DNA of 50,241 nucleotides from positions 1 to 50,241 of IMG/VR virus record IMGVR_UViG_3300009285_000011; one strand, given 5' to 3'. The DNA comes from a virus. A model generated the notes under the pieces. That model saw nothing but the letters and a program-made list of their open reading frames with translations. It had not been told where the DNA came from and did no database searches. The position numbers and the translations under genes are program-made. This document shows, one piece after another, positions 1 to 50,241 of the stretch; within the stretch, counting starts at the first letter, position 1; each line of letters begins with the position of its first letter.

Positions 1-77
1 TGAGGCTTTATCGACTTGATAGCGGAGTAAGACTTCACTTGTCTTTGCCATCAGAGTGTGACCTTTACAGTATCTTC
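1..77. repeat. terminal direct repeat, copy A (identical to 50165-50241); circular-closure overlap
   Basis: The first 77 nt match the last 77 nt base for base. The tape-measure start codon at 50213-50215 equals positions 49-51 and overlaps the TGA of ORF 51-359. Confidence 0.95.
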
Positions 78-3908: not shown

Positions 3909-4083
3909 ACTTCAAATCCTCATCTGGTGACTGTTCTATTTCTTCAGGGATTCCAAGTGGAAAATAGAAAGATTCCATTTCTTTTTTTTGAAGTCTCAAT
4001 CCAGCTAATCTGCTTTCCAAGTCACATATTTCATTGTTAATACACTCTAATCTAATAAGCCATATAGGGGTTTCATCAGACAT
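3895..4083 (-). CDS. hypothetical small coiled-coil protein (AT-rich ORF)
   Basis: This 62-aa ORF overlaps both neighbours. It is visibly AT-rich relative to its flanks. Confidence 0.45.
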   Translation of the reverse strand: MSDETPIWLIRLECINNEICDLESRLAGLRLQKKEMESFYFPLGIPEEIEQSPDEDLKFDPV

Positions 4084-5809
4084 TGGCTTTCACTCCTACC
4101 TTCGCCGGAATAATTTCCGTAAACAATTCCTTCACCCGCACATCGAATGTGTGGCGCTTATGAGCAAACCTGTACCCGGCCTGTCGGATCGTTTCGCGCT
4201 CTACCGGATTCGCCATCCAATACTCGATTGCGCTGGGCAAATCTTCCAGACTGTCGAATGCGGCGAAGTGAACGCCCGCTCGCAGTCCGGTGACTTTCAT
4301 CAATTTATTGACCTTCTGATGCAGCATGAATGCACCCGCGCCCAAACCCTCAAACATGCGGTTGCTGACGAAGCCGCTCCCGTCATTGTACTGATTATCG
4401 CCGACACAAATCTTAGCGTTACGCATCAATGCCTGCGATGTAGCGAAATCGTATAGCGTGTCGCCGTCGCCATCCAGCCAACCGCTGCCATAGATGCCGA
4501 CATTGTAAGGCAAACTCTTGAGCAACTTACCCCATTCCTGCCGCCATTCACTGTAGGCATTGGCAAGAAATAGCACATCATGCGCGGGCATATCCGGCAG
4601 AGTGGGGGGCTGCTCGAAGGCGCACTGCCAATAAGCCGCCGGGATACCTAACTTCTCATATTCATCAACCACGTTCAAGTTAACCACCAGCGCCAGATCG
4701 TACCATGCCAGCAAGTCTACCATACCGTTATTGAGTGACACATCCGGCCAATAATCGCCGTTCCAGTTTATACATAGCATAGCCGGGTTATCGCTACGCA
4801 GGTGGTGAATGCAGTCTATCGTAAACTCTTCGGCGCTGTGACATTGTGTAAACAGGATGTCCGGTTTCCATGCCCGCGCCAGCGTCATCACTTCCTGTAA
4901 CACGCTGCCTTTACTACGATGCGTCCTGAGATAATCATATTCGATAACCGTTCCGACACTGCCCAGCGCATCACGCAATCCGCGTTTCTGCTGGAATTGT
5001 GATGGTTTGTGACCCTCGAATATCGGTAAGTAGAGAATACGTACCCGATCATCTAATTCCGGCGCTTTGATGGGTTGGCTGTTGAATACCGCACCGCCTT
5101 TGAACCGCGTGTAATAAATGGCGCTGTCCTCGACGCCGTGCTGCCCGTTGATTTGGCGCATATCATCGCGGCTAATCACATCGTGGATTTTACAGCCCTC
5201 TACTGGATTGATCGTGTAGCCCATTTCCCAGATGCGCGATGACAGGTAGTTATCGCCGCCATAGGTTCGCGCTTTACTCATGAGCCGATCATCCGCGCCC
5301 CACCAGCCCGCCGCCTCGCCTAACCAACGCCGGAACATACCGACCTGCGCGTAAGGGGCGCTGATTTGCGAGCCATCGGCTAACCGCGCCGGGTGTTCCA
5401 TCACCTGATGCTTAGTCCGGTCATAGCGGTTATCAGCGAAGGCAACAGCGCCCGCGCTCGGAGTAGTATCCAGATAGCGCATGGCGATGAGTAAGCTCAC
5501 TGGATGAAAGGTCACATCATCATTTGCCATGACTACATAATCGCCTGTCGCTATTTTCGCGCCGTCACAGAAGGCTTTAATCGCGCCTCGCAATTCGCCA
5601 TGTTCGATGAGCTTCACATCAGACTGTTCTTTACACCATTGAAGCGTGCCATCAGTAGACCCGCCATCCACAATGATGATCTCATATTCCAGACCGCGAT
5701 ACATCTGGTTACGAATGGATATGATGAGGGCTTGCAAAAGACGCAGGCGGTTGTAGGTTCCGGTTACGATACTAAGATGCAAAAGGTTTCCTCCACATAG
5801 CAAGCCCAC
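4076..5809 (-). CDS. two-domain glycosyltransferase (N-terminal GT2/GT-A domain plus C-terminal CgeB/GT1-like GT-B domain)
   Basis: The N-terminal region reads LSIVTGTYNRL..IIIVDGGSTDGT..VVMANDDV. The C-terminal region reads NRMFEGLGAGAFMLHQ..ETIRQAGYRFAHKRHTF. The true start may be TTG at 5780-5782, which follows GGAGG. Confidence 0.8.
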   Translation of the reverse strand: MGLLCGGNLLHLSIVTGTYNRLRLLQALIISIRNQMYRGLEYEIIIVDGGSTDGTLQWCKEQSDVKLIEHGELRGAIKAFCDGAKIATGDYVVMANDDVTFHPVSLLIAMRYLDTTPSAGAVAFADNRYDRTKHQVMEHPARLADGSQISAPYAQVGMFRRWLGEAAGWWGADDRLMSKARTYGGDNYLSSRIWEMGYTINPVEGCKIHDVISRDDMRQINGQHGVEDSAIYYTRFKGGAVFNSQPIKAPELDDRVRILYLPIFEGHKPSQFQQKRGLRDALGSVGTVIEYDYLRTHRSKGSVLQEVMTLARAWKPDILFTQCHSAEEFTIDCIHHLRSDNPAMLCINWNGDYWPDVSLNNGMVDLLAWYDLALVVNLNVVDEYEKLGIPAAYWQCAFEQPPTLPDMPAHDVLFLANAYSEWRQEWGKLLKSLPYNVGIYGSGWLDGDGDTLYDFATSQALMRNAKICVGDNQYNDGSGFVSNRMFEGLGAGAFMLHQKVNKLMKVTGLRAGVHFAAFDSLEDLPSAIEYWMANPVERETIRQAGYRFAHKRHTFDVRVKELFTEIIPAKVGVKANV

Positions 5810-6413
5810 ATAATGCGGGGCTTATTTGATAACTGGTGAATGCGTCGCCGATCACATTCCTGATCCCGGTCTGCACATCAGCCTGCGTGCGCTCATGCTC
5901 ACTGTCGTGGGATACGATCATGCCGCCGGGAGCGCCATACTGATAGAACGCTTTCCAGACGTGTGTGACCATATCCATCTCATGATAAGCATCCTCGAAA
6001 ATAAAATCATAGGGCGGATTATATTTGTAGTTCCAGTCAAATAAATCAGCTTTCACGCTCTCTATAATCTCATGATACCAACCTTCCACTTCCAAACAGG
6101 TAGGCTCTACACCATTATCTATCGTGGTCAATCGCCCTACTCCATTTGTCAATAGCGCCTTTGCGATATGCGCCGTGCTCGTTCCCCAACAGTTACCGAT
6201 TTCCAGGACATTTTTAGGATGCAATGCTCGAACAAGCGCGTAAAGCGCCTGACCCTCAACACCCCAGATACCCTTCTTATATTTGCTAGGATTATCCAGC
6301 GTCGGGAAATGGCCGCCCAGATTATCTTCATAAGCATAAGCAATAAGTTCACTAGCTGATAACCCATAGGTAAGCGCGATGTGAGATAGACATTCTTCGA
6401 GCGTTCCGTTCAT
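5772..6413 (-). CDS. class I SAM-dependent O-methyltransferase (Methyltransf_24 / OMT family 3-like), paralog 1
   Basis: Motifs seen are VLEIGNCWGTSTAHIAKAL..RLTTIDN..FIFEDAYH..GGMIVSHD. The start has an ATGA overlap with the upstream gene. Confidence 0.75.
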   Translation of the reverse strand: MNGTLEECLSHIALTYGLSASELIAYAYEDNLGGHFPTLDNPSKYKKGIWGVEGQALYALVRALHPKNVLEIGNCWGTSTAHIAKALLTNGVGRLTTIDNGVEPTCLEVEGWYHEIIESVKADLFDWNYKYNPPYDFIFEDAYHEMDMVTHVWKAFYQYGAPGGMIVSHDSEHERTQADVQTGIRNVIGDAFTSYQISPALCGLAMWRKPFAS

Positions 6414-7111
6414 TTAACTGCCACCCATCCGGCAAAATTCATCCAACGCCAAAAACAATCAATATGCCGGAAGCCCACCGCCTGTAGAAATTCTTCATTC
6501 ATTCGCGCTGTAACCGGGACTAATACGCCTTCCAATGCCAGCCGCTTGCGTTCAATTTGTTCCCCCGAATAACCGGCATTGCCTTTGGCAGTATAGTAGA
6601 GATCGGCCATGTCCTGATTAAGCCGCGCTGTTGCGCCGAGCACTTTTTCTACCAGAACGAGCGCTCCACCGGGCAGCAGCGAATTGTAGACATCCTGTAT
6701 GACACACTGGCGGTATTCGATAGGGATAAATTGCAGCGTCAGCACCGACAGCACCAGCGTGGCGCGTTCCGGCGGGTAAGCATGGCGCAAGTCAGTGTCG
6801 CGGATAATGACGTTCTCATTCCCAGCAAAGCGCATCTGGGCAGCAAGGCGCATCGGTTCGCTGACTTCGATACCCAGGCATTTATGTGATTTGGAATAGC
6901 AGTTGACGAATGGTTCTATCGCCTGTCCACGCGAACAGCCTAAATCGACGATCCAGCCTTCCTCCTGCACGTAGCGGCGGCCAATGTCATACACCGATTT
7001 ACGCATGACTTCGTACTGAGGAACAGACCGCGCCAACATATCCTCGAACACCTGTGAAACGCTGGTATCGAATGACCACTTGTCGGTAGGATAAATAGTG
7101 TCGCGATTCAT
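6410..7111 (-). CDS. cmoA: CmoA-like carboxy-S-adenosylmethionine synthase homolog
   Basis: The protein resembles E. coli CmoA end to end by eye: WSFD..VFEDMLARSVPQY, VDLGCSRG, LVLSVLTLQFIP..YNSLLPGGALVLVEK, GYSGEQIERKR, and C-terminal WMNFAGWVAVK. I chose the start at ATG 7109-7111 (MNRDT), which makes an ATGA overlap. Confidence 0.7.
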   Translation of the reverse strand: MNRDTIYPTDKWSFDTSVSQVFEDMLARSVPQYEVMRKSVYDIGRRYVQEEGWIVDLGCSRGQAIEPFVNCYSKSHKCLGIEVSEPMRLAAQMRFAGNENVIIRDTDLRHAYPPERATLVLSVLTLQFIPIEYRQCVIQDVYNSLLPGGALVLVEKVLGATARLNQDMADLYYTAKGNAGYSGEQIERKRLALEGVLVPVTARMNEEFLQAVGFRHIDCFWRWMNFAGWVAVK

Positions 7112-7722
7112 ACAGGTTTTCTCCATATCCCCAGACCACACTTTCCCGGCTGTATCAGAAGCGGTAAACCATCAGGCGTCACTCGCGCCATACCTTCTCT
7201 AACTGTTAATCCCACCGATTCATGGACTGCGTCATGGCTAACAATCATTGCGCCCGGTAATGCATTCTCTTTGAAGTCTGCCCACACATGCGCAGTCATC
7301 TCCGCCGTGTGCATTGCATCTTCAAACACAAAATCGACACAACCACTAGGCATCCGATAATCGAAGAGACTGATATTGACCTGTTCAATAATCCCAGCAT
7401 ACCGTTCTGGCACTTTATACATGAATGCGATGTCAATCGAAATGAGTTTACCCTGTTCGTTCCTGAATAGGGCTTCCGCGATATGGTAGGCGCTGCATCC
7501 ATAATAGCTACCCACTTCGATAGCCAGTTTAGGCTTCAATGCCCGGATAAGCGCGTAAATGATTTGCCCTTCAACTTCCCACACACTGCCACATATCCAT
7601 TTCGCATTCGCCGGGTTTTCGTCCCAACCGCCAATGGTATCTTCTTGCACATAAGCGGCGAGTTCGGATTCATTCAGGCCGTAGGCCACAGCGATTTTGT
7701 GCAGGGCTTCAGAGAGGTTCAT
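7108..7722 (-). CDS. class I SAM-dependent O-methyltransferase, paralog 2
   Basis: Motifs seen are AIEVGSYYGCSAYHIAEAL..KLISIDI..FVFEDAMH..GAMIVSHD. The protein is clearly paralogous to 5772-6413 and 7974-8612. Confidence 0.75.
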   Translation of the reverse strand: MNLSEALHKIAVAYGLNESELAAYVQEDTIGGWDENPANAKWICGSVWEVEGQIIYALIRALKPKLAIEVGSYYGCSAYHIAEALFRNEQGKLISIDIAFMYKVPERYAGIIEQVNISLFDYRMPSGCVDFVFEDAMHTAEMTAHVWADFKENALPGAMIVSHDAVHESVGLTVREGMARVTPDGLPLLIQPGKCGLGIWRKPV

Positions 7723-7987
7723 GTATAGCTATCCAGTTAATCAGTGTGGAAAGTTTGGTTGTAGTATAAATCGTCTTGTTACTTTTGTGTTCAACTAACG
7801 ACCAGGATGTCTCATCATTCCCATAAAGCGGATCACTCACGATAATCAGGTATCCATTTTGCATTAAAACATGGCTAACAAAATGTAGCAGTGCCCGTCG
7901 ATCTAGTTTCAAATCTTCGATACCCTGTTGCAATTCCATTATCACGTCTTCTCGAAATGCTAGAATACTAGTCTCAGAGAGATTCAT
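7709..7987 (-). CDS. hypothetical 92-aa protein (AT-rich insert between the methyltransferase paralogs)
   Basis: I chose the start at ATG 7985-7987 (MNLSETS), which follows GGGGAG. The longer track ORF that runs to 8074 would overlap the upstream methyltransferase by 100 nt. Confidence 0.5.
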   Translation of the reverse strand: MNLSETSILAFREDVIMELQQGIEDLKLDRRALLHFVSHVLMQNGYLIIVSDPLYGNDETSWSLVEHKSNKTIYTTTKLSTLINWIAIHEPL

Positions 7988-8612
7988 AGTTCTCCCCGGT
8001 GAACTTGTACATCGAAAGCCCGCACGGTGACGGGTCAGTAACATATATCTTGACCTGATTGAGATTGACGCCACCCTTGCGCATCCCCTCGCGGATATAT
8101 TGCGCCATGCCTGTCGTCACATCATGCGACAGGATATAACCACCGACTTTCAGGATGCGCCGCAAATTCTGGTAAATAACGTGTACCTGAAATTCGCTGT
8201 GATTGCCGTCGTCGAAGATAAAATCAAACGGCACCTGTACCTGCGGAACGTAGAGATTGGCATCCATCCATTGGACAGTGATGTACTCGCGTAGATCATC
8301 AGGAATGCCAGCGCCGCCATTCGGCGTTATATCGACGGTTGTTACATGGCCGCTTTCGTTTTCTTTGCAGGCTGCCGCCAAGTGCGCTGCGCTGCCGCCT
8401 TGATATGTGCCGATTTCCAAAATGCGCTCTGGCTTCAGGACCCGAACGAGCGCATACAAAATACGCCCCTCATTGCCGTAACTAATCCCCTGTTCGTTGC
8501 CTTCATCGAATCCGAGCAGGGTATCTTCTTTGGCGTAACGTTTCAACCACGTCACCGACATGTCGAAATGGTCAGCGATGGCCTTCAATGTGCCAGCAAG
8601 TTGTTGGCTCAT
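7974..8612 (-). CDS. class I SAM-dependent O-methyltransferase, paralog 3
   Basis: Motifs seen are ILEIGTYQGGSAAHLAAAC..HVTTVDI..FIFDDGNH..GGYILSHD. A GGTGA RBS precedes the start. Confidence 0.75.
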   Translation of the reverse strand: MSQQLAGTLKAIADHFDMSVTWLKRYAKEDTLLGFDEGNEQGISYGNEGRILYALVRVLKPERILEIGTYQGGSAAHLAAACKENESGHVTTVDITPNGGAGIPDDLREYITVQWMDANLYVPQVQVPFDFIFDDGNHSEFQVHVIYQNLRRILKVGGYILSHDVTTGMAQYIREGMRKGGVNLNQVKIYVTDPSPCGLSMYKFTGENYESL

Positions 8613-8616
8613 TCAA

Positions 8617-8850
8617 TCACCTTTGGATACGAATTGATCTTGGCAAATTATCGAAAATGTCTTTGGATGTATATCCTACCCATGACCCATGAGAAAATAC
8701 TCGATAATCTCTATGAACATAGGTAGGGTATAACCGATACTGCCATTCCTCAGACTGCTCTTTTGAACAGTCATTCACATTTACATCAGATAATGATTGA
8801 ATGAGAGAGTAATCTAAAAATGTCTCCCATGGATGTCCCGAATAATTCAC
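8617..8850 (-). CDS. hypothetical 77-aa protein (AT-rich)
   Basis: The ORF has an ATGA overlap with its upstream gene. No motif was recognised. Confidence 0.45.
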   Translation of the reverse strand: MNYSGHPWETFLDYSLIQSLSDVNVNDCSKEQSEEWQYRLYPTYVHRDYRVFSHGSWVGYTSKDIFDNLPRSIRIQR

Positions 8851-9608
8851 TCGATTATTTCCTTAGTCCAATAGGGGTGGTTCTGCATAAATGACGGCAA
8901 ATAATCTATCGGTTCTATAGTCTCAGGATTCCAATATTCGCTTCCAATCGGATGGCAGTCCTGTTGGGCATTCGCCAACCATTTATTTTCGCGCCAGCCA
9001 TCATGTCGTAACTGCCCGACATGCCCATGTACTGCCAGCTTGTAATCTAACAGCCATGTCGGGATGGCATAGCCCATATGGTTAATCGGCGCGGTATGTA
9101 GGTAGCCTTCACCTGTTCGCCCTGGTACGATTACGCGCACAGGGTAGGCCGGATCATGCAGCACGGCCCGGCGGAATGACCGCCAGTAATGGATCATATT
9201 CATGCGATAACCCCACTTATCCCCTGCTAGCGCCAATTCAATCACCTCTCGCGCCACGCCCGCCTGCCAGATTTCATCATAATCAAGCACGAGTACCGCT
9301 TCGGCATTCGGGCAAATAGTATGGATGCTATCACGTTGGACGCCTTCCGCCGTCCAGTCGCCGTCGATCCATGCCAGTTTATCCCCCGCTGCTTCGTTGG
9401 CTTGCAGGTAGAGGTTATAGCGTGACTCGCTGTCTGGCAGCGTGTAACCATTTACCCGCGTCCCATGCGACGGCTGCGCGGCGTAGAGGATGAAATACAT
9501 GTCTACAGCGTCGATAATGGAGCGGATAGCATAGGACAAATACGGGGATCCATAATGCAGAGCCGTATAACCGATAATCACGTTACCAGCCTTCCGGTTT
9601 ATCGACAA
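8847..9608 (-). CDS. putative GT-A fold glycosyltransferase
   Basis: This 253-aa protein has a Rossmann-like N-terminus (VIIGYTALHYG) and a DxD-like LVLDYDEIW motif. Its context is the glycosyltransferase island. An alternative GTG start lies at 9581. Confidence 0.4.
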   Translation of the reverse strand: MSINRKAGNVIIGYTALHYGSPYLSYAIRSIIDAVDMYFILYAAQPSHGTRVNGYTLPDSESRYNLYLQANEAAGDKLAWIDGDWTAEGVQRDSIHTICPNAEAVLVLDYDEIWQAGVAREVIELALAGDKWGYRMNMIHYWRSFRRAVLHDPAYPVRVIVPGRTGEGYLHTAPINHMGYAIPTWLLDYKLAVHGHVGQLRHDGWRENKWLANAQQDCHPIGSEYWNPETIEPIDYLPSFMQNHPYWTKEIIE

Positions 9609-9825
9609 GAATAACAGTCATAAAATATTGCGCGCCTTCCTTTTGTGATGATGGCACTTCCCCAGCCCGCCGCCACGCTTCATCTGCTGTCCAGCCATAG
9701 GCCACGATTGCCAATGAATGAAATTCGCGCACAATGAAAAACTCCCGACACAACGGATTATCCTTGATTTGTTGTGGATCAATATCAACCCATGAGCCAT
9801 CCTCTAGCTTTACTGTCTTTGCCAT
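9583..9825 (-). CDS. hypothetical 80-aa protein
   Basis: The ORF start overlaps the TAA of the upstream gene (TAATG). Confidence 0.45.
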   Translation of the reverse strand: MAKTVKLEDGSWVDIDPQQIKDNPLCREFFIVREFHSLAIVAYGWTADEAWRRAGEVPSSQKEGAQYFMTVILVDKPEGW

Positions 9826-10574
9826 TATACATGCGCCTCTACTACTTTATCGAACTGTAGTTCATCACATAACAAATGATGCAGCGCCAGTCCGCGCTCC
9901 TGCAATCGCTCATCACGCAGCGCCAGTTTTACTAATGTGAACATCGTCTCATAACCGCCCTGATAAATGATGTCGGTAAACGGCGCGGTATCCCAACCGT
10001 TCTCGGCAATCAACGGCAGTCCGTAAGCGCCTGCCAATACCGCCCGGAGCGGAGCGATAGCCGGGAACGCCGCCTGCTGATGGATGTGGAGTAGGGCGCG
10101 ACTTTTCATCATAGCCTGTCGCCGCTGTTCGCCCCAACCATTCGGCGCAATCCGGTAGCCGCTTTCCCTCATCCTTCCCAGCAGCCAGCCGCGACGATAA
10201 ATTTCCGCATAGGACAGGTGAATAAAATCGTATTCGGATGGATACTTATCCAGCGTTCCTAATTCCGCCCTACCCCCTAACGGCACGTATCGTGCTCCGA
10301 TGCGCTCGGCGAATGTGCGGTTGCTCGTCCACGTTTCGGCTACTCCAGCCTTCTGTGCGTAATCACCGTACCATTCCAGCAGCCAGAAGATAATCCGGGC
10401 GCGGGGTTTTATCCATGACAGCGATGTATCACAGCCTGTTAGAATATAGGTATGATCGCTATGGATGTCGATTTCATCCTGATAAATGATCGGGTATCCA
10501 CTGAAACGCACCATATCCCAAAAGTCACAATAGGATTGGTATTCATGGCGCGGTTGGGCGAAGATCAGGCTCAT
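9825..10574 (-). CDS. GT-B (GT1/CgeB-like) glycosyltransferase domain protein
   Basis: The C-terminal pattern KSRALLHIHQQAAFPAIAPLRAVLAGAYGLPLIAENGW resembles the nucleotide-sugar binding half of GT1/GT4 enzymes. Confidence 0.5.
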   Translation of the reverse strand: MSLIFAQPRHEYQSYCDFWDMVRFSGYPIIYQDEIDIHSDHTYILTGCDTSLSWIKPRARIIFWLLEWYGDYAQKAGVAETWTSNRTFAERIGARYVPLGGRAELGTLDKYPSEYDFIHLSYAEIYRRGWLLGRMRESGYRIAPNGWGEQRRQAMMKSRALLHIHQQAAFPAIAPLRAVLAGAYGLPLIAENGWDTAPFTDIIYQGGYETMFTLVKLALRDERLQERGLALHHLLCDELQFDKVVEAHV

Positions 10575-10577
10575 AGA

Positions 10578-10808
10578 TTATTCCGAATTATCCCGAATAA
10601 GCGAATAAAAAAATGGCATCCATTGTCCTTTTATAATACCGTCACATAGCCAGTTATCCCCTTCATGAGTCATAAACCATACGTTACCATCCACCGGCTT
10701 GCCTGCTTGTTTTTTCAGGATATACATACGATCAACAGCAATATCCTCAATTGTATATTCTTCTGCTGGGAATCCTTCGACTTCAACTCGGTAAATAGTT
10801 TCACTCAT
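10578..10808 (-). CDS. hypothetical 76-aa protein
   Basis: The ORF has an ATGA overlap with its upstream gene. Confidence 0.45.
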   Translation of the reverse strand: MSETIYRVEVEGFPAEEYTIEDIAVDRMYILKKQAGKPVDGNVWFMTHEGDNWLCDGIIKGQWMPFFYSLIRDNSE

Positions 10809-11809
10809 ACTAATTTCTTTTTTGCAACTCTCATTACCTTTTCGACATCCGGTTTCACGGCGCTGCGGTCAATCCTGATAGGCAGCGGTGGCGGAGTCGG
10901 CATAACACCCGTTTGCCGTAACACCCGCTCGAAACCATCCAGCCCTTCAAACATCGGTGGCATATCGGCTAACAATTCGGGAATGATTTCCCATAACTCC
11001 GGCGAATGTTCAGCATCCCGGATATCTACCCATACGCGGCGCGGCCAACTAAGCCGCGCATAACGCCGCCCGGTCACGCGCCCATATTCCGCGCGATTGC
11101 CCTGCCATTTCGCCATTACCAGCACATCATTCTCCTGGCGCTGGCCTTCGGGAATAAATTCGTCAATTACTGGCGCATCCAGACAACAGCCCATATTGCC
11201 GTCATACCTCCGAAATAGTTCTTGTCGCAATAACTGCGTGCGCCCCGACTCTACGCTGTCTTTGGCGCGCTGCCCATCAATCGAATAATGAACAAGCGGC
11301 TCTTTGAGATGTTGGGCGCAGACCTGCGCGCCTCGTAACTTACAGAATAGATCGGTGTCTTCCATCGCTTCGAGTGTTTCATCGAAGCCATTCGCTTTAC
11401 GCACCGCTTCAGTCGGAAGCAGCGCCGCGATGTGATGCCAGCCCCACTGCGGCGGGCAGTAGGGGCGTTCAGGAGCGCGGATGATTTGTTCATCCTGATA
11501 CCAGTCGGTGTACACGTAGCGACCCTGCTGATAAACTGCCAGACACCGCTCGACAAACGGCGGTTCGATCCAATCATCGGCATCGAGAAACACCACAAAC
11601 GGCGTTTCTACCATATCGAGCAGCCGATTGCGAATGTACCCCGCGCCGAGCAGGTCATCATCATTCATGTAGTAACATTTGCAGGCTGTCGTCTGGGCCT
11701 TAACGCTATCCAGAGCGCGATCTATAATCGACTGATGATAGGGCGCTACCGGAATAAGAATGGAAACGTTAATCATAGTGTCCATCATAATGTGCCTTAT
11801 TCCATGCAA
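10805..11809 (-). CDS. family 2 glycosyltransferase
   Basis: Motifs seen are VSILIPVAPYHQSIIDRALDSV..FVVFLDADDW. The true start is probably an internal ATG (11788 or 11776), because 11809 overlaps the upstream ORF by 41 nt. Confidence 0.75.
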   Translation of the reverse strand: MHGIRHIMMDTMINVSILIPVAPYHQSIIDRALDSVKAQTTACKCYYMNDDDLLGAGYIRNRLLDMVETPFVVFLDADDWIEPPFVERCLAVYQQGRYVYTDWYQDEQIIRAPERPYCPPQWGWHHIAALLPTEAVRKANGFDETLEAMEDTDLFCKLRGAQVCAQHLKEPLVHYSIDGQRAKDSVESGRTQLLRQELFRRYDGNMGCCLDAPVIDEFIPEGQRQENDVLVMAKWQGNRAEYGRVTGRRYARLSWPRRVWVDIRDAEHSPELWEIIPELLADMPPMFEGLDGFERVLRQTGVMPTPPPLPIRIDRSAVKPDVEKVMRVAKKKLV

Positions 11810-12240: not shown

Positions 12241-13656
12241 TTATGTGCGGTAACTTGTGCCGCCATCATAATAGAAACTTCCGCTCGGCAGCGCGTTATG
12301 GATCGGCGCGGCGAACGTGTACTGTAGATTGTCGATACGTCCGGCTAACCAGGGCGTCTCCAGAATGAGGCGCATCTTATTGGCGAACTGATATTCCTTG
12401 CAGAACGCTGTTTCCTCAGCGCCCGACAACCACATACCATTATTCAATGCGATACGCTGCGTTCCGGCGAAGTTATCGAACTCCTGCAAGTATTGGTTAT
12501 CCATTGGGAAGTATTCCAGACGGCATAACGACATTCCCGCCCAACTAACTGGGATGATGTACATATCGCTTTCAAACGTGTTGGCGGCTGGAGTAGTCTG
12601 GGGAATACCTTCGCTGAATACCACTGGCAAAGGCTTGCCATCGACCATGATGTACTGCCCGCTCAGAAATTCGCGGCGCATCCGCCCGACATTTTCGGCG
12701 CTTGTATTAATTTCGTCATACTGCCCGCCGGCGCACTTGTACAGATCGTACTTGCACACGTAGTTTTCAACGAATGTGCGGTACAACTCTTCGCGCATAA
12801 CGGCTACCCACTGGACGCCGACCATTCCCGCCTTACGAGCGCGGTTATTCAGACCATACATCAGATCATGTAATGCCTGTACGATGTCGCGTCCATCGGC
12901 GGTAGTCGTATTGACATTGGCGCTGTAGGTAATGATGGCGCTATCAACAGCCGGACAGGTAAGTTCGGTCACACGATCCGTATACCCAGTTTTGACCTGC
13001 CGATCCAGTCCATCAAACTCTATTGTCCATCCATGCGCAGTTGCAGTATAGGCTGTACCAATATTACCCTGTACAAGTACGACATCAAGCGTCCGCTCAA
13101 ATTCGACACCGATACGCCACAGTTCGTATTGTAACTGCGAGCGGGCATCAGCCAGTTTATAGAAGATGTCGGGAATGAGCGGGTTTTGAGTAGGCCCGGC
13201 ATTCAAGATTTGCGCTGGGATGTCAGCGCGGTTACGTAGCTGCCCAAGCTCAGGAATAGCCTGCAAGTCTGTTTTGATGATATATTTCCCGAACTTGTAA
13301 ATCTGCTGACAGACTTTCGCAGCGCCGACAGCAGGTGGATCGCCGCAGAACCCGGCAGCATTTGTGCCACTTGCTGTCGTGACGCCTGTCATAATTTCGA
13401 GTATCTCTTCAGTGTACTCAGAGCGTGAAACGCCTAATACACCAACCAAACTATCAGGACGAGCGAGGGCGCTAAACCGTTCTGGTCTTACGCCAGGATA
13501 GGTGAATAGCCCATACTGCGTGGTGCTTTCATGATATGGCCCATGCAGCGCGGGGCCAACTAAGGTGGTAGACGCTGGCGTATGCTTGGCAGCAGACGCG
13601 ATCATCTCCGAAATTTCTTTCATTTGTTCTGAGGTATATACAGCTTGAACACCCAT
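12241..13656 (-). CDS. major capsid protein
   Basis: This 471-aa ORF lies directly downstream of the protease and the acidic scaffold. The call is positional, and an HK97 fold is presumed. Confidence 0.7.
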   Translation of the reverse strand: MGVQAVYTSEQMKEISEMIASAAKHTPASTTLVGPALHGPYHESTTQYGLFTYPGVRPERFSALARPDSLVGVLGVSRSEYTEEILEIMTGVTTASGTNAAGFCGDPPAVGAAKVCQQIYKFGKYIIKTDLQAIPELGQLRNRADIPAQILNAGPTQNPLIPDIFYKLADARSQLQYELWRIGVEFERTLDVVLVQGNIGTAYTATAHGWTIEFDGLDRQVKTGYTDRVTELTCPAVDSAIITYSANVNTTTADGRDIVQALHDLMYGLNNRARKAGMVGVQWVAVMREELYRTFVENYVCKYDLYKCAGGQYDEINTSAENVGRMRREFLSGQYIMVDGKPLPVVFSEGIPQTTPAANTFESDMYIIPVSWAGMSLCRLEYFPMDNQYLQEFDNFAGTQRIALNNGMWLSGAEETAFCKEYQFANKMRLILETPWLAGRIDNLQYTFAAPIHNALPSGSFYYDGGTSYRT

Positions 13657-13660
13657 GATT

Positions 13661-14335
13661 TTACTCCTTCAATGGGACGCCAAAGAACGTCTTCTTACCG
13701 TTCGCGCCCTTTTCCAGTTCTTTTTTCAAGTCAGCATTCTCGATAACTGTTTCAGCGGCCTGTGACGCCTGGCGCGGGCGGCTGTTAACTTTAGCCTCTA
13801 AGGCTTTGACCTGCGCCTGGAGCGCATCCACTTTACCAGTTTCTTTCACTAAAGGCGCGAGCGCGGCTACCGTTTGCGCCATCTGGATAATGGCCGGAAT
13901 GAACTCGCCAACATCCTTATAGATAGCTGTCGATTCGGCGGCCATCGCCTTGACCTGCGAAGTCAATTCCATAAAGGCTTCCATCGTCGGTTTCTTTTCC
14001 TCGTCTTCATCTTCCGGCGCTAGTTCCTCTTCCATCATAGTTTCTGGCGCTTCCTCTTCTGGCGCAGGCTCAGCATTCGCTAACTTACCTAGCATAATTG
14101 CCAGCACCTCATCGACAATCGCTTCATCGGGATTGTCGGTCAGTTTGGTTAGCGTCGCCATCAATTCTTCGCGCATATCTTCTAATACGCCCTTGTTTTT
14201 ATGCTCTTTAGTTTCATGGCCGCGCTTCTTGAGAATCTCGGCCACCCGACTTAGCGCCTTTTTGAGTTCATCATCCTGTGACTTACCCAAAATTTTATCC
14301 ATCAACGACAGGCGCTCATTATCTTTTGCACTCAT
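13661..14335 (-). CDS. scaffolding protein
   Basis: The protein is highly acidic and helical (EEEAPETMMEEELAPEDEDEEKK). I chose the start at ATG 14333-14335, which follows GGAGG and lies downstream of the protease stop at 14340. Confidence 0.65.
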   Translation of the reverse strand: MSAKDNERLSLMDKILGKSQDDELKKALSRVAEILKKRGHETKEHKNKGVLEDMREELMATLTKLTDNPDEAIVDEVLAIMLGKLANAEPAPEEEAPETMMEEELAPEDEDEEKKPTMEAFMELTSQVKAMAAESTAIYKDVGEFIPAIIQMAQTVAALAPLVKETGKVDALQAQVKALEAKVNSRPRQASQAAETVIENADLKKELEKGANGKKTFFGVPLKE

Positions 14336-14339
14336 CGGA

Positions 14340-14936
14340 TTAATCCTCCATAACTTGTGCGAAGGTAAACAGATTGGCCGCTCGTGTGAGCGGCAGGATA
14401 GAGGTTTCATTTTTCAGGATGAGTTCATACATTCCATCCTGTCTATCTTCTTTAATGTAATTGAAGCCAATGCTGGCTCCCCATGTGACCGGCGTAGTTT
14501 CCAACGCATCCCATACTGCTTTACGCGAAACCATGTACGGTTCTTCGCCGGAGTGCCGCGCCAAATTAATCATCGCATCGGGTAACTCTCTGGCAACTTC
14601 GACTAGAAATGTGCCATATATTTTGGCCGCCATAATTTCGCCAAGCGGCTCGCCGCCATGCCAGTAAAGTAGCGGGTTCGGGGAAAATATCTTGACATAA
14701 CCTTCTAACGCCTTTTGGCGGACAATTTCTTGCTCGCGATCTTTGTAGCTGTTGGAGCTTATCAGAATCATACGGCGCAATCCGGCCTTACTGCCAAATA
14801 CCAGCGCCAGCGATTTGCCGCGCCGACAGTTCTCATAAGCGATAGCGACAGCTTGATCCTTTGGTTTGCCGGAGCGAATGAGTTCCGCGATATTGGCGCT
14901 AATTGTAGTTTTATCACAACCGGGTTTGAGGGGCAT
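14340..14936 (-). CDS. prohead serine protease (HK97 gp4 / S78-like)
   Basis: [13 protein letters not shown] is a His-type motif and WGASIGFNY is a Ser-type motif. The gene sits between the portal and the scaffold. Confidence 0.6.
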
Positions 14937-14937
14937 G

Positions 14938-15168
14938 TTACTCTCTCTTAAACCTCACAGGCCGTGACACTTCAAATTCCGGCTCAAATTGAATCCCGTG
15001 ATCGCCTTCAAACGGCTCAGTATGGTCATTCTTCATCATGAGAATTTCATCGGGTATACCGTCCGGGAACGCTTCGCAGGTGGGAGTATCTTCATGCTTG
15101 TGCTTGCAATAAGCGCAGGCTGACAGCGCCAGTCCATCTTTTGGAAAACTGAATTTATCATTACTCAT
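14938..15168 (-). CDS. small Cys-rich protein
   Basis: This 76-aa protein has the pattern [18 protein letters not shown]. It overlaps the 3' end of the portal-MuF-ART gene. Confidence 0.5.
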
Positions 15169-17833
15169 CAGAGATGATCTCCATTACTAACCGGTTCCGG
15201 CCTTTGATACGTTTTGCCTCAACCACCCGATACGCAGTCCCGCGTCCTAACAAAAACTCTGCCTCATGATATCCGAAATTCGATTCTGATGCGATATAAG
15301 CGCCACGCGCCCCCTTAGGTACGCGGATTTCATAATCGAAATCTCCCATCGCATATCTACCTGATTTAATCGAAGTCGAGGTAAATCCAGAATCGCGGAT
15401 TACTGTGCCTTGTAATTTCTTGAAATCTTTAGGGGATAAATTACCCCCATTCGGCAATCCACGCCCGCCATCCGTTCGATATACGGTGATGTCACGATCT
15501 AGCCCATCCCGTTCAGTAAGCCTATCAAGATTCTCGATGTGAGCTAAAGTTGTCGGATCAGCCGTCCGGTTTATACCTCGCAGATGTTCATTGATGGGGG
15601 TATAAGCTGTACTAGAATATTCCTCAATACTGGTAATTTCTGCTTGTCCTTCAGGTGTCGTTTTTAGATCATCAAGGGTTTTTGACCATTTATTCTTAAA
15701 TTCCTCATCTTCGACATCAACCGATTCATAGGCGCGCTTCGGCTGTTTATCTGGTTTTTCTTCGGCTTCATCGCCATTCCCCCCACCACTACCTGCGCCA
15801 AACCGCCCGGCTTCACCGCGTGGATGTTTACCTTCATCCCATACCGCTTTACCTCGTAGGAACGTAATCAATCGCTGGAATGTGCCGCTCACGCCGCCGC
15901 GTGTGAACGAGCCACGCGCCCGCGCTTCACTCTTGACTAATCGGCAGCCGCACTTAAAGCCTTTACATTCCAGCACATCACTCTTAGGCAAGATACCTTT
16001 AGCGATATAATCCTTCATCGCATGTACCTGTCCATTCATACGCAGGCAGGTCTTACAATGTTCCTTGACCGGGTTCATAACCCACAACCATTTACTATTC
16101 CTGGCAGTGCTGCCTAGCGCCTTATAGTAGAGCGGCGTCAATGATTTATTGGCCCACATGTCGGCGCGGCTGGCGATGAGTGATGGTGTGAAGTCTTTTT
16201 CGCTGTAGAGTTCGTTTATGAAGTTATCAACATAATCACTCTGTTCAGCGCGCCAGACCGCAATCGCCGTCTGCGCATCGCTGTCGAGCGTTGGATTTTC
16301 AATACCGCCATCGCGCATCCCGTCGAGCCATACACTCTCGCCGCCCTCCTGCAATCGGGCGCGCAATCCGAACTTGACAGCAGACGGGCTAACAATCTTC
16401 TCATTACCAAACATGACTAGCCGAGCGAAGATATCTTTGAATGCCTGAGTGCTATCTGATAGCGCCCGTTCCTCGCTCATGGTCGTGGCATCGGGCGGCG
16501 TCTGGGCGCTAATCTCCGGCGCGGTCACGGTTTCAATAATGGCCGGAGCATCGGGATTCACGTCATCTAACCGGATGACGTGGCCGCCCTGATCGGTCAA
16601 TACGTCATGGAAGGCAGTCATCTGGTTAGCAAGTAACTGGCGGCGCTCGTCGGGCGTCATCTCACTTTGTAATGAGAGCGCGATACCTGCCCACGTCTGC
16701 GCGATATTGGCTTGTTCCTGATCTTCCTCCGGGTCGCGATACTGGAACATAAACAGCGCATCGGAAGGCAGCACGGCGTTAATCACGCGCTCGATTTGTT
16801 TCAGGATACGGCCTATCGCCTTGCCTTTGCTCTTCTCGTGTAGGATAACCGACTGCGTTCCCGTGCCGATCCCAGCGCCAGTCAGTTCCCACATATCCTG
16901 AATGTCAAGGCCGATACCGAGCGCAATTTCTTTGACGTTAAGCGCCTTATATTGTTCGAGATCAAATTTCTCTGGCGGCTGTGAGAATGACACAAACTCA
17001 ACAGCAGGTTCCTCTTCGGCAGCCCTGCCATAAAGCGGCACGATCTGCCCCCATTTACCGCCGGAATCAATTTTACGCTCTTCCTCATTGCGATTAAGCG
17101 CCGCCTTGACCTGGTTAGCGTCCAGGTTCTTAAACAAAACAAAACCGGGCGGCGGGTTATCGTCCAACATGCGCTCGACATAACGGTTAATGAGGATGTC
17201 GCGCATGACCGCGCCGATACACCGCGACAGCGCCGACTCGCCGTAGCCATAACTCATCTCATAAGCATCAGGATTATCAAGGAAACGTACAACACGCGAT
17301 CCATGCATGGTATGAAGCACGCCCAGCGCATCCATATAAATCACCGGATACTCAGGATCGCCCGTCGGCCAGCAGCGCAAGCTGTCAAGCACGCTTAGTC
17401 CGGTCAATTGTCCGGTCATCGGTTCTAGTGGATCGCCAGGGCCAATAAGTTCTACATATGCGCCACCGTCATAACGTGAGAAGTCGATAATGAGCTTGCT
17501 CAGGAACGAGTCCCAACCGCGCCCGAAATCGGATAGATGAAGCACATCCTGATAATAGTCGGCATCAGCAGGGCGCGCGGTGATTTCCCAGGGCGTCGAT
17601 TGAATGCGTTTAATCAATCCGGCAATCGCGCCTTTGAACAAGTTGTTATAATCATGGCGATAATACTCTAAGAGTTTGGCCTCACGTTCCCGCGTGCCAT
17701 GACCAGGCAGCAAGGGGCCGCGCCAGTATACGCCAAGCGACAGCGGTGTAGCGGACTTGCGTCGTTTGATGTCGGGAAGCTGCTGGACGCTCTGCGTCCG
17801 TTCGACTTGTATGATTTCAGTCGGAGTAGGCAT
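15161..17833 (-). CDS. portal - MuF(SPP1 gp7-like) - ADP-ribosyltransferase fusion protein
   Basis: This is a continuous 890-aa ORF. The N-terminal ~450 aa are portal-like. The middle segment carries the MuF Cys motif (KEHCKTCLRMNG..ECKGFKCGCRL). After a GGGNGDEAEE linker, the C-terminus carries R-S-E ART motifs: YTPINEHLRG, TVYRTD, GFTSTS and YHEAEFLLGRG. Confidence 0.8.
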   Translation of the reverse strand: MPTPTEIIQVERTQSVQQLPDIKRRKSATPLSLGVYWRGPLLPGHGTREREAKLLEYYRHDYNNLFKGAIAGLIKRIQSTPWEITARPADADYYQDVLHLSDFGRGWDSFLSKLIIDFSRYDGGAYVELIGPGDPLEPMTGQLTGLSVLDSLRCWPTGDPEYPVIYMDALGVLHTMHGSRVVRFLDNPDAYEMSYGYGESALSRCIGAVMRDILINRYVERMLDDNPPPGFVLFKNLDANQVKAALNRNEEERKIDSGGKWGQIVPLYGRAAEEEPAVEFVSFSQPPEKFDLEQYKALNVKEIALGIGLDIQDMWELTGAGIGTGTQSVILHEKSKGKAIGRILKQIERVINAVLPSDALFMFQYRDPEEDQEQANIAQTWAGIALSLQSEMTPDERRQLLANQMTAFHDVLTDQGGHVIRLDDVNPDAPAIIETVTAPEISAQTPPDATTMSEERALSDSTQAFKDIFARLVMFGNEKIVSPSAVKFGLRARLQEGGESVWLDGMRDGGIENPTLDSDAQTAIAVWRAEQSDYVDNFINELYSEKDFTPSLIASRADMWANKSLTPLYYKALGSTARNSKWLWVMNPVKEHCKTCLRMNGQVHAMKDYIAKGILPKSDVLECKGFKCGCRLVKSEARARGSFTRGGVSGTFQRLITFLRGKAVWDEGKHPRGEAGRFGAGSGGGNGDEAEEKPDKQPKRAYESVDVEDEEFKNKWSKTLDDLKTTPEGQAEITSIEEYSSTAYTPINEHLRGINRTADPTTLAHIENLDRLTERDGLDRDITVYRTDGGRGLPNGGNLSPKDFKKLQGTVIRDSGFTSTSIKSGRYAMGDFDYEIRVPKGARGAYIASESNFGYHEAEFLLGRGTAYRVVEAKRIKGRNRLVMEIISDE

Positions 17834-48446: not shown

Positions 48447-50215
48447 TAACTGGTTATTCCAATCTGGTTAAGCGCCTGTAAAGCCTGTTGCGCGGCGCTG
48501 TTTTGTCCTCTGCCTGTTGCCTGATTTGCCATGTTAATCCGTTGCTGCCAAAACTGTTGATCGAGTTGGAGCAATTGTCTCATAGCCTGCTGCGCCATCT
48601 GGATTTCTTTTTGATGCGCATCACGGGCAAGCCGCAGTTGGCGCTCTCGTCCGATGCGCATATCGCGCATCTGTCTGCTCATATCAGTCTGTAAATCACG
48701 GCGGTTACGCTCATAACCGCGCAATGTCTCCTGTCGCTGGCGTCCCTGTGATGACCTGAAATCGTCCATTTCGAGTTGATTGGCAATATTACGTTCGATG
48801 GCTTGCTGGCTAAATTGCTCACGGGTATCTTCTAATCGCATTTTTGCGTCTTCAGCTAATCTTCCCATAGCCAGAAAATCGCGGTTGCGGATGGCATCCT
48901 GCTCGCTGCGCGCTCCCTCTCTGCGAATATCGTTAAGTGTTCGCTGGTTATCGCGGGCGGCGGCTTGCTCATCACGCATATTGCCCAGTGAAATACCCTG
49001 TAATTCCTGCTGACTTTGTAGGGCGGCATCGGCGAAAGTATCTGTCAATCCTTGCGCTAAGTCTTTAATACGATCCTTCTGCCCGCGCTTGGCGTCAGTA
49101 ATGGCTTCGCGGGTTTGGCGGCCTATGCTGGATAGACTATCGGCATACCGTTGATTGCTTTGTTCGATTTGCCCGGTAATCCGTTCCCGATCTGCCGCCG
49201 CTTTTTTCTCTTCATCGGCGGCTTTTTTAGCGGCATCCACCGCCGCCGCCGCGCCAGAACTAATCGCATCACTGACAACCCCGGCCTCCATCCCTAGTTT
49301 ATTCAATTGCTTTTCGAGTTCTTGAATACGCGCCGTCGTCTGTTCGCTGGTATCACCGGATTGTTTTAGGATATCCAGTTCAGTTTGCAGGGCGGCGCGT
49401 TCGGTTTCCAGTGAGGCAAGTCGTTCCTGAGATGCTTCGACACCGCGTTTACCCGCTTCTGTCTCAAGACGAATACGGTCTCCGGCGGCGATGGCGCTCT
49501 GGCGCATAGATTGAGCGGCATCGGCGGCGGCATTACCTACACTGTCGAATGCTCCGGCTACATTTTCCAGAAGCCCGGTAGCTTTATCGACTTCGACATT
49601 AGCCGCTTTGTAGGCCGCTTCGACGGTAGCCTGTTCTGCGCCAGCCATACTGAGACTTTGTTTTAGGTCATAGATAACGCCATCGAAGCCCTTCATCCCT
49701 TCATCAGCATCTTTCATGAGCTGATTAAGACGCGCCATATCATCGCGATACTTGGTGGCAACCTGAATATCTTGCTCGCGCTGCGCCCGGATTTTTTCAA
49801 GCTCTTCGCTGGTTTTGGTTTCCAGTTGGGCGCGGTCTTTAATCACATCAATAGTAGCTTCGGTAGCTTTTTTGGCTTCTTCCATTTTCTTTTTTGTTTC
49901 AGCCAGCGCAATACCTAAGACTACGACGGCGGCAGTTGTTGCTACACCAATTGGCCCTAATGTGCCGATGGCGGAACTAAGACTGCTAATCGCTTGCCCC
50001 GCCTGTCCGCCAAACCCCGCCATACCGCCAAGCATACTGACCTGCTGCCCGGCAGTAGAGATTTTCCCTCTCATACCGCCAACAGATTTGCCACCTACCC
50101 CGCCAGTTCCGATGGCCTGCTGTGAGCGTAGGATTTGGTCGCCAGCAAGCAAGACATTATTGACTGAGGCTTTATCGACTTGATAGCGGAGTAAGACTTC
50201 ACTTGTCTTTGCCAT
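48446..50215 (-). CDS. tape measure protein
   Basis: This 589-aa protein has Gly-rich and hydrophobic N-terminal segments and long Q/R/E/A-rich coiled coils. It lies directly downstream of G/GT across the circular junction. Confidence 0.8.
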   Translation of the reverse strand: MAKTSEVLLRYQVDKASVNNVLLAGDQILRSQQAIGTGGVGGKSVGGMRGKISTAGQQVSMLGGMAGFGGQAGQAISSLSSAIGTLGPIGVATTAAVVVLGIALAETKKKMEEAKKATEATIDVIKDRAQLETKTSEELEKIRAQREQDIQVATKYRDDMARLNQLMKDADEGMKGFDGVIYDLKQSLSMAGAEQATVEAAYKAANVEVDKATGLLENVAGAFDSVGNAAADAAQSMRQSAIAAGDRIRLETEAGKRGVEASQERLASLETERAALQTELDILKQSGDTSEQTTARIQELEKQLNKLGMEAGVVSDAISSGAAAAVDAAKKAADEEKKAAADRERITGQIEQSNQRYADSLSSIGRQTREAITDAKRGQKDRIKDLAQGLTDTFADAALQSQQELQGISLGNMRDEQAAARDNQRTLNDIRREGARSEQDAIRNRDFLAMGRLAEDAKMRLEDTREQFSQQAIERNIANQLEMDDFRSSQGRQRQETLRGYERNRRDLQTDMSRQMRDMRIGRERQLRLARDAHQKEIQMAQQAMRQLLQLDQQFWQQRINMANQATGRGQNSAAQQALQALNQIGITS

Positions 50216-50241
50216 CAGAGTGTGACCTTTACAGTATCTTC
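50165..50241. repeat. terminal direct repeat, copy B (identical to 1-77)
   Basis: See copy A. Confidence 0.95.

Follow-up and report, generated by a model that had tools for sequence, protein, structure and literature searches.

A phage CmoA homologue encoded beside a COMT-like methyltransferase in a glycosyltransferase island: a candidate system for glycan carboxymethylation

CmoA converts S-adenosylmethionine (SAM) and prephenate to carboxy-SAM (Cx-SAM) and phenylpyruvate. Here we describe a CmoA homologue encoded at positions 6410–7111 of a 50,241-nucleotide viral DNA (IMG/VR record IMGVR_UViG_3300009285_000011, positions 1 to 50,241; hereafter the window), where the gene sits in a glycosyltransferase island beside a gene for a catechol O-methyltransferase (COMT)-like protein. 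The earlier note on this DNA, made from the sequence alone, took tRNA modification by CmoB to be the only well-known use of Cx-SAM, a view that is now outdated: documented targets number four, namely tRNA, a single peptide, a single nucleotide antibiotic and, from 2025 onwards, the DNA of phages. In the natural-product pathways TglE/TglF and MccS/MccB, Cx-SAM is used by TglF, which carboxymethylates a peptide thiol, and by MccB’s C-terminal domain (PMC10491745), and in phages CmoA feeds CmoX, a homologue of C5-cytosine methyltransferases, yielding DNA with 5-carboxymethylcytosine, a base that an asparagine-synthetase-like ligase frequently elaborates (Nat Commun, December 2025, PMC12783734). 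All four known systems consist of a CmoA homologue and an adjacent transferase of methyltransferase fold (PMC10491745, PMC12783734). Wild-type rat COMT O-carboxymethylates catechols with Cx-SAM in vitro; Herbert et al. (2020), who coupled CmoA to such methyltransferases with success in vitro, knew of no natural combination of this sort (PMC7496830). The suggestion in the earlier note of a chemistry not described for phages was consequently too broad, given the published CmoA/CmoX carboxymethylation of DNA cytosine and the presence of phage CmoA (phrog_4752) homologues in 81 isolated-phage records, of which those inspected have DNA-modification neighbours; novelty would be confined to carboxymethylation of a glycan or protein. 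A literature search on Cx-SAM with glycosyltransferases, sugars or carboxymethyl glycans found nothing relevant. What is new in the window is not a phage CmoA as such, but its association with a COMT-like transferase in a glycan island, in a genome that lacks every known Cx-SAM user.

The product of 6410–7111 is a full-length member of the CmoA family. It begins MNRDTIY and contains WSFD..VFEDMLARSVPQY, DLGCS, LTLQFIP..LLPGGALVLVEK and NFAGWVAVK, so that all the motifs by which the earlier note had recognised it were located. Its top NCBIfam family is TIGR00740 (CmoA; E 4e-45, 154.3 bits, profile positions 13–239 of 239), the best sequence matches in the PDB are the CmoA structures 1im8 (E 3e-31), 4gek (E 2e-27) and 4iwn, all over the full length, and identity to E. 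coli CmoA is ∼32%. The match to phrog_4752 (E 1e-68) carries the PHROG annotation ‘tRNA methyltransferase’, and Pfam, which has no CmoA-specific model, reports only the generic Methyltransf_25 and Methyltransf_11. Byrne et al. list the cofactor-contacting residues of E. coli CmoA (EcCmoA), in which the carboxylate of Cx-SAM is bound by Arg199 through a salt bridge (PMC3663124). This arginine is kept in the window protein, where ERKR-LALEG aligns to E. coli SQKR199-SMLEN, and eight of twelve further contacting or highlighted residues are identical (Y39, D62, G64, S66, A70, D117, F137 and E164), with conservative changes at D89 (Glu) and I118 (Leu). The TLQF, RQ and EK motifs of the E. coli enzyme are also retained.

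An AlphaFold2 (AF2) model of the protein (mean predicted local distance difference test score, pLDDT, 85.9) has the Rossmann fold with a cofactor-enclosing helical lid seen in 4gek and 1im8, and Foldseek returns 1im8, 4gek and 4iwn as top matches (template modelling score, TM, 0.82–0.88, root mean square deviation 2.6–3.1, 220–228 aligned columns). Compared with a metagenomic relative of 93% identity, the gene has a ratio of nonsynonymous to synonymous divergence (dN/dS) of 0.087, similar to the 0.046 of the putative capsid gene, and purifying selection on it is thus strong. As the earlier note had observed, it shares a four-nucleotide ATGA stop/start overlap with each neighbouring gene, the upstream gene 7108–7722 ending ...CCTGTATGA and the downstream gene 5772–6413 starting ...GTTAAATGAAC. 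A longer GTG start at 7141 was considered and rejected, homologues being called at 233 residues. We judge it very probable that the protein is a true Cx-SAM synthase.

The first and last 77 bases of the window (1–77 and 50165–50241) are identical, an exact overlap of the kind left by an assembler. This marks the phage genome, of ∼50,164 bp, as complete and either circular or terminally redundant, and the search for a user of Cx-SAM covered all of it. A Pfam scan of every open reading frame (ORF) of at least 50 residues, 78 in all, found CmoA and three Methyltransf_24 (MT24) paralogues as the only proteins of methyltransferase fold. The absence of CmoB that the earlier note had seen locally extends to the entire genome, where the best tblastn match to the E. 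coli protein had an E value of 2.1 and the 78 ORFs included no CmoB-type family. Neither was CmoX found, as tblastn with the CmoX-type protein of a related phage locus (L008) returned nothing below E 4 and PF00145, the C5-cytosine methyltransferase family with its SPPC motif, was absent from the same ORFs. The census likewise contained no CmoY-like amide ligase of the asparagine-synthetase type, a CmoY seed from Erwinia phage Y3 gave zero matches in any glycan-island locus, and tRNA genes and hydroxymethylase-type families are both missing from the complete genome.

The main comparative evidence for a partner comes from the MT24 genes of this and related islands. The three window paralogues all match PF13578 and flank or adjoin cmoA as the earlier note had described, 7108–7722 and 7974–8612 being 44% and 34% identical, respectively, to 5772–6413. 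Across islands these genes form three orthologous groups, a, b and c, of which b and c are found both with and without cmoA (b in the CmoA-less islands L096 and L102, c in the CmoA-less L095 and L102). Within group a, the window gene 5772–6413 clusters with L094:9355-10017, P0136 and P0129 in a clade, here termed a*, to which P0128 is the next branch out; neighbour-joining (NJ) bootstrap support for the four-member core is 94%. A CmoA gene lies directly upstream of the a*-clade gene in five of five lineages (the window, L094, L116, L117 and L118), with one small ORF intervening in L094, and the five CmoA proteins are 53–73% identical to one another. For P0136, P0129 and P0128, whose gene context had not been seen, adjacency to cmoA was set beforehand as a prediction, and it held for all three: P0136 follows a 234-residue CmoA homologue with overlapping stop and start codons, P0129 the C-terminal 117 residues of one at a contig edge, and P0128 the last 155 residues of one. 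No CmoA was found beside the sister-clade genes of L103, L104 or the complete island of L119; L095, where the contig ends, is partly informative. The CmoA-a* adjacency is thus maintained across lineages while the surrounding gene order changes, a pattern that a functional CmoA/transferase pair predicts. A neighbouring methyltransferase using Cx-SAM, raised as a possibility in the earlier note, has in this way gained comparative support, and the role can now be assigned provisionally to the downstream paralogue. No member of the a* clade was found in 185,579 GTDB genomes.

The predicted structure of a* is compatible with such a role. Its PF13578 score of 45 bits exceeds the gathering cut-off of 26.3, the AF2 model has a pLDDT of 93.8, and the best Foldseek matches are the cation-dependent COMT-like O-methyltransferases 4oa5, 8xdy, 3duw and 7cvu (E 1e-9 to 1e-10), so that a* is confidently modelled as a COMT-like class I O-methyltransferase of the cation-dependent type. 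A profile of the MT24 family matches 4oa5 (E 2e-12) and, much more weakly than the family-3 O-methyltransferases, the tRNA 5-hydroxyuridine (ho5U) methyltransferase TrmR/YrrM (8k1f, E 1e-6; 5zw3, E 1e-4), the Gram-positive counterpart of CmoB. All 59 family members compared have D141, H169 and D170, and conservation of at least 90% is seen at E140, H144 and S168; situated after strands 4 and 5, these residues are, by analogy with COMT, candidates for a metal or catalytic site. The residues specific to a* are Met148, Met165, one Thr and His35. An Arg after SHDSEH and a Lys before GIW were considered as a*-specific carboxylate binders and rejected, both being present in CmoA-less sister genes.

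In the model we favour, 6410–7111 would convert host SAM and prephenate to Cx-SAM, from which a* would transfer a carboxymethyl group, in place of methyl, onto a sugar hydroxyl. The acceptor sugar would belong to a glycan built by the island glycosyltransferases 4076–5809 and 10805–11809, perhaps with 8847–9608 and 9825–10574, and paralogues b and c would add ordinary O-methyl groups. As the island adjoins the putative capsid gene and precedes the downstream structural genes, the most likely acceptor would be a glycan carried by a virion protein. Of all parts of the model, this choice of target is the least certain. We put the probability of the full model, in which a glycan made by the phage, and probably located on the virion, is O-carboxymethylated through the CmoA/a* pair, at roughly 0.5. 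More tentatively, a* may represent a fifth natural class of Cx-SAM-dependent transferase, a COMT-like MT24 enzyme that O-carboxymethylates a sugar of a virion glycan and is supplied by a CmoA recruited into the glycan-tailoring operon from the phage DNA-modification CmoA pool.

The origin suggested for cmoA draws on the wider distribution of the family. We fetched 80 IMG/VR loci whose CmoA is 46–63% identical to that of the window, and the CmoA ORF could be placed in 72. A C5-methyltransferase gene (PF00145) lies within -4 to +2 genes of CmoA in 56 of these and directly upstream in 36, and none of the 72 carries an MT24 gene. The nearest non-trivial relatives of the window CmoA (71% and 67% identity) each overlap a PF00145 gene, and in an NJ tree with a star-like backbone, calculated without bootstrap, the window CmoA falls among CmoX-linked genes and that of L094 elsewhere, a placement compatible with either one or several captures of CmoA by the island. 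Use of prephenate by this clade is supported indirectly, since members in bacterial genomes adjoin genes for chorismate mutase and 3-deoxy-D-arabino-heptulosonate 7-phosphate (DAHP) synthase and close relatives (67–71% identity) are coupled to C5-methyltransferase genes, like the CmoA of the CmoA/CmoX system proven by experiment. In Synechococcus phage S-B05 (L120:4004-4699) we observed a cmoA-cmoY-cmoX operon like that of S-B43, the CmoA being 25% identical to the window protein and having Glu at the position of EcCmoA Arg199, so that carboxylate binding may differ in the validated cyanophage type. A further context without CmoX was seen in a phage contig binned with Chloroflexi bacterium CFX3 (L090/L091), where a CmoA 60% identical to the window’s stands just upstream of the genes for the small and the large terminase, with no C5-methyltransferase within 10 kb and a Methyltransf_23 gene ∼5.5 kb downstream in the structural module.

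Bacterial genomes and metagenome-assembled genomes (L121-L190) also hold related CmoA genes, 42–82% identical over the best segment and 45–60% for most full-length matches, in Planctomycetota, Chloroflexota, Actinomycetota, Cyanobacteria, Acidobacteriota and others. A C5-methyltransferase is near CmoA in only 10 of these 70 loci. Among same-strand neighbours, the gene directly downstream encodes a generic class I methyltransferase in L130, L178, L179 and L187 and is a GT2 gene in L149 and L182, and Methyltransf_2 O-methyltransferases, chorismate mutase and DAHP synthase also occur. These neighbourhoods hint at further uncharacterised Cx-SAM pathways, and, with so few of the 70 loci next to a C5-methyltransferase and others next to generic methyltransferases or GT2 genes, more Cx-SAM chemistry probably awaits discovery.

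Several observations weigh against our model. The window CmoA scores under the NCBI curated equivalog cut-off of TIGR00740 (154.3 against 193.3 bits) and likewise under that of PRK15451 (100 against 285), Val replaces both N90, which in EcCmoA contacts adenine through the main chain, and N132, one of whose contacts is likewise by main chain, and CmoA-like folds include CysG and BelI, which have other chemistry. Comparison with TIGR00740, which the earlier note had proposed as a check, upholds the top family, Arg199 and most cofactor residues, and falls short at the equivalog cut-off and at N90 and N132. In the transferase, the alignments contain no Arg or Lys exclusive to a* that could hold the Cx-SAM carboxylate as K91/R315 do in CmoB or R350 in CmoX. 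The comparison of islands sets five a* lineages against three to four sister lineages, a small sample of short metagenomic contigs that are not fully independent and are ordered by an NJ tree whose support drops to 59–68% once P0128 is included, and vertical co-inheritance of a two-gene cassette would give the same pattern without functional coupling. The putative capsid protein (12241–13656) has no Pfam or PHROG match. Lastly, the steps we propose are read from sequence, which would also accommodate a protein or other acceptor in place of the sugar, and the host envelope in place of the virion as target.

The low family score, the purely generic Pfam matches, the loss of N90 and N132 and the different functions of the structurally close CysG and BelI would all suit a CmoA-fold enzyme that makes no Cx-SAM and acts instead as an ordinary SAM methyltransferase, or performs other SAM chemistry, on the glycan or an intermediate, leaving the island with four methyl-type tailoring enzymes. 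We consider this unlikely. Relatives linked to CmoX must be suppliers of Cx-SAM; they are 67–71% identical to the window protein and have the same TIGR00740 score, four other phage-clade relatives, two of them CmoX-linked, scoring 149–159 bits, and a CmoX-linked protein (L008) has the same residue pattern with Ile in place of Val at N132. As residue pattern and score are nearly identical in such relatives, the sub-threshold score is characteristic of the phage clade and does not point to decay. In EcCmoA the cofactor is enclosed by the lid and almost inaccessible, with no room for a macromolecular acceptor (PMC3663124). Arg199 and the TLQF, RQ and EK motifs also argue for Cx-SAM synthesis. If Cx-SAM is made, a* could still use it on a non-sugar acceptor such as a virion protein side chain or a small molecule. 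By structure and by sequence alike, the MT24 proteins come closest to an Anaplasma O-methyltransferase (4oa5, 4pca), an enzyme with a protein substrate. Thiol carboxymethylation of a peptide by TglF offers a precedent (PMC10491745). This reading has, in our estimation, rather poor odds: the MT24 genes are always in the glycosyltransferase island and their number co-varies with that of sulfotransferase-like genes, a pattern typical of glycan tailoring, and there are weak RMNT_CmcI/rhamnosyl-O-methyltransferase matches in b and c and a match of c to 6g7d.

Linkage to CmoX in the closest non-trivial homologues and in the 56 of 72 placed loci would fit a role in nucleic acid modification, with Cx-SAM destined for phage DNA, on which a host enzyme or a transferase so far overlooked would act, or for tRNA, either by boosting host CmoB or by a TrmR-like action of a* on ho5U; the MT24 profile does match TrmR/YrrM (E 1e-6 to 1e-4), and host CmoA can feed phage CmoX in E. 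coli (PMC12783734). We hold this to be improbable, as the complete genome lacks a C5-methyltransferase, a CmoY-like ligase, CmoB, tRNA genes and any hydroxymethylase-type family, cmoA is translationally coupled inside the glycosyltransferase island and outside the replication module, and the TrmR match is far weaker than those to other family-3 O-methyltransferases. The least probable of the alternatives is that cmoA is a passenger, or a SAM-depleting or anti-defence factor, and lies beside a* through inheritance of a cassette. The island is mosaic, with a synonymous divergence (dS) of 1.4 in paralogue b against ∼0.4 in its neighbours and a small inserted ORF, and SAM depletion by CmoA has been raised as a possibility (PMC12783734). 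Strong purifying selection on cmoA, its overlaps with both neighbours in the window, and an adjacency to a* kept at 53–73% CmoA identity despite changing gene order all point away from a passenger, and O-carboxymethylation of a glycan by the CmoA/a* pair remains our preferred reading.

The island in which the pair lies (4076–11809; Table 1) has the putative capsid gene on one side and the downstream structural genes on the other, and is conserved beside the putative capsid gene in a family of ∼50-kb podophages recovered from metagenomes. The sugar-modifying setting proposed in the earlier note is strengthened by two Pfam-supported GT2 genes, of which 4076–5809 is conserved in related phages (56–59% identity), always just past the MT24 genes. 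The glycosyltransferase label is unproven for the conserved 253- and 249-residue proteins (8847–9608 and 9825–10574), neither of which has a Pfam, PHROG, NCBIfam or PDB-profile match; for the former, the invariant acidic motif prompts us to infer a possible GT-A-like enzyme. Paralogues b and c show weak similarity to rhamnosyl-O-methyltransferases and RMNT_CmcI, and the best PDB sequence match of c is 6g7d, presumably a sugar O-methyltransferase. The assignment of 12241–13656 as capsid protein is putative and comes from its position and its conservation in all related phages; an acidic scaffold-like protein is encoded at 13661–14410.

Table 1. Genes of the glycosyltransferase island and the adjoining putative capsid gene. 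Lengths are in amino acids (aa).
Feature	Coordinates	Strand	Length (aa)	Evidence
Two-domain glycosyltransferase (GT2 + Glyco_trans_1_2), island 3' end	4076..5809	-	577	PF00535 E 1e-22; PF13524 E 2e-17
Methyltransf_24 paralogue a*, candidate Cx-SAM-dependent O-carboxymethyltransferase	5772..6413	-	213	PF13578 E 2e-11
CmoA homologue (predicted carboxy-SAM synthase)	6410..7111	-	233	TIGR00740, phrog_4752, PDB matches, AF2 model
Methyltransf_24 paralogue b, predicted SAM-dependent sugar O-methyltransferase	7108..7722	-	204	PF13578 E 1e-9; RMNT_CmcI E 7e-5
Methyltransf_24 paralogue c, predicted SAM-dependent sugar O-methyltransferase	7974..8612	-	212	PF13578 E 7e-19; Methyltransf_3 E 1.5e-7
Conserved island protein, possible GT-A-like enzyme	8847..9608	-	253	invariant D109-x-D111-E112 in 10 related islands
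Conserved island protein	9825..10574	-	249	kept in 8 related islands
GT2-like glycosyltransferase, island 5' end	10805..11809	-	334	PF00535 E 4e-7; phrog_14775 E 2e-11
Putative major capsid protein	12241..13656	-	471	position (after portal fusion and scaffold-like protein); conserved in all related phages

Tailoring content differs among related islands, which hold one to three MT24 genes, sometimes a sulfotransferase-like gene, and cmoA only sometimes. Genes matching Sulfotransfer_2 or Sulfotransfer_3 were observed at L094:5354-6019, L116:199-957 and L119:1783-2508, and suggest the island may install other anionic groups on the glycan; for L102:1875-2576, a 233-residue protein of no family with a P-loop-like N-terminus, the sulfotransferase label is a guess only. 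Within the window, a 92-residue ORF on the minus strand (7709–7987) fills a gap of ∼250 nucleotides between paralogues c and b. The 93%-identical relative L003 has no such gap, its c and b genes overlapping by 14 nucleotides. As the ORF starts MNLSE with the same codons as the start of paralogue b, a copy of that gene’s 5' end (ATGAAYCTCTCTGA) appears to have arisen with the insertion. Compared with L003:6081-6695, paralogue b has a dN of 0.23 and a dS of 1.40, against dS values of 0.38–0.47 for cmoA, paralogue c and the putative capsid gene, an excess divergence that indicates recombinational replacement inside the island; no close relatives of paralogue b were found in IMG/VR.

Phage features of the genome include terminase genes, a portal fusion and podophage fibre and adaptor domains of GP4 type. 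Searched by megablast, a collection of 50,697 phage records gave zero matches to the island, and it thus holds no isolated relative of this phage group. The portal-like protein (15161–17833, minus strand, 890 residues) matches in its C-terminal third the ADP-ribosyltransferase exoenzyme family PF03496 (E 5e-25), and also phrog_3895 (E 1e-19); the relative L096 similarly carries Phage_portal and ADPrib_exo_Tox on a single protein, and the C-terminal domain may be a toxin, either ejected or carried by the virion. On the plus strand, the replication-side module encodes a pentapeptide-repeat protein (34136–34741), matching PF00805 at E 1e-35, together with one resembling IS110-family transposases (35554–36270; phrog_4285, E 5e-42).

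If the model holds, it would extend Cx-SAM to carbohydrate chemistry, with the first natural carboxymethyl-ether modification of a glycan derived from this cofactor, and would provide a small, tractable transferase family as the natural counterpart of the engineered CmoA + COMT cascade. It would also mean that a DNA-modification gene has been redeployed for virion decoration, adding negative charge to the virion surface, where an acidic carboxymethyl sugar on the capsid could affect adsorption, aggregation or recognition. For annotation, the calls of ‘tRNA methyltransferase’ for phage phrog_4752 proteins are misleading, as it is the partner gene, and not CmoA, that reveals the modified target.

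Comparison with described systems places the window locus near the CmoA/CmoX(/CmoY) genes of Synechococcus phage S-B43, in which a phage CmoA is also encoded without CmoB and beside a gene of methyltransferase fold. The window CmoA belongs to the same broad clade (phrog_4752), and its nearest non-trivial relatives, at 67–71% identity, are CmoX-linked. Unlike the phage DNA-modification systems, which lie in a nucleotide-metabolism module and act on C5 of cytosine, the window contains neither a C5-methyltransferase nor an amide ligase; the partner is a COMT-like MT24 protein, cmoA lies in a glycosyltransferase island of the structural module, and the predicted acceptor is a glycan hydroxyl. With E. 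coli CmoA/CmoB (b1870/b1871), which direct synthesis of uridine 5-oxyacetic acid at tRNA position 34 (cmo5U34), the locus has in common the CmoA family and fold (∼32% identity, Arg199, TM ∼0.85), an overlapping two-gene arrangement and a predicted transfer that is also an O-carboxymethylation. It differs from the E. coli pair in lacking CmoB and any tRNA context, and in a CmoA that falls below the TIGR00740 and PRK15451 cut-offs. In TglE/TglF and MccS/MccB, as is proposed here, a CmoA has been recruited outside tRNA modification and placed beside a dedicated carboxymethyltransferase in a tailoring cluster. These systems belong to bacterial natural-product clusters, where they serve the synthesis of 3-thiaglutamate and a peptidyl-cytidylate antibiotic with a peptide thiol or a cytidine as acceptor, and TglF is CmoB-like and MccB contains an unrelated methyltransferase domain, neither being a family-3/family-24 O-methyltransferase as a* is.

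On the glycan side, a close parallel is provided by cluster O and F mycobacteriophages, in which clusters of glycosyltransferase and O-methyltransferase genes are described as glycosylating capsid and tail proteins (Freeman et al. 2023, as cited in PMC11600133). The window similarly has tandem glycosyltransferases (two GT2) and O-methyltransferases (three PF13578). The citing account of the mycobacteriophage clusters describes no CmoA or Cx-SAM, these phages belong to a different group, and glycosylation by the phage of the window is predicted from its genes. The pairing of CmoA with a class I cation-dependent O-methyltransferase acting on hydroxyls is the same as in the engineered cascade of CmoA with COMT or coclaurine N-methyltransferase (CNMT; PMC7496830), which is artificial and has catechols as acceptors, where the natural pair proposed here would carboxymethylate sugars.

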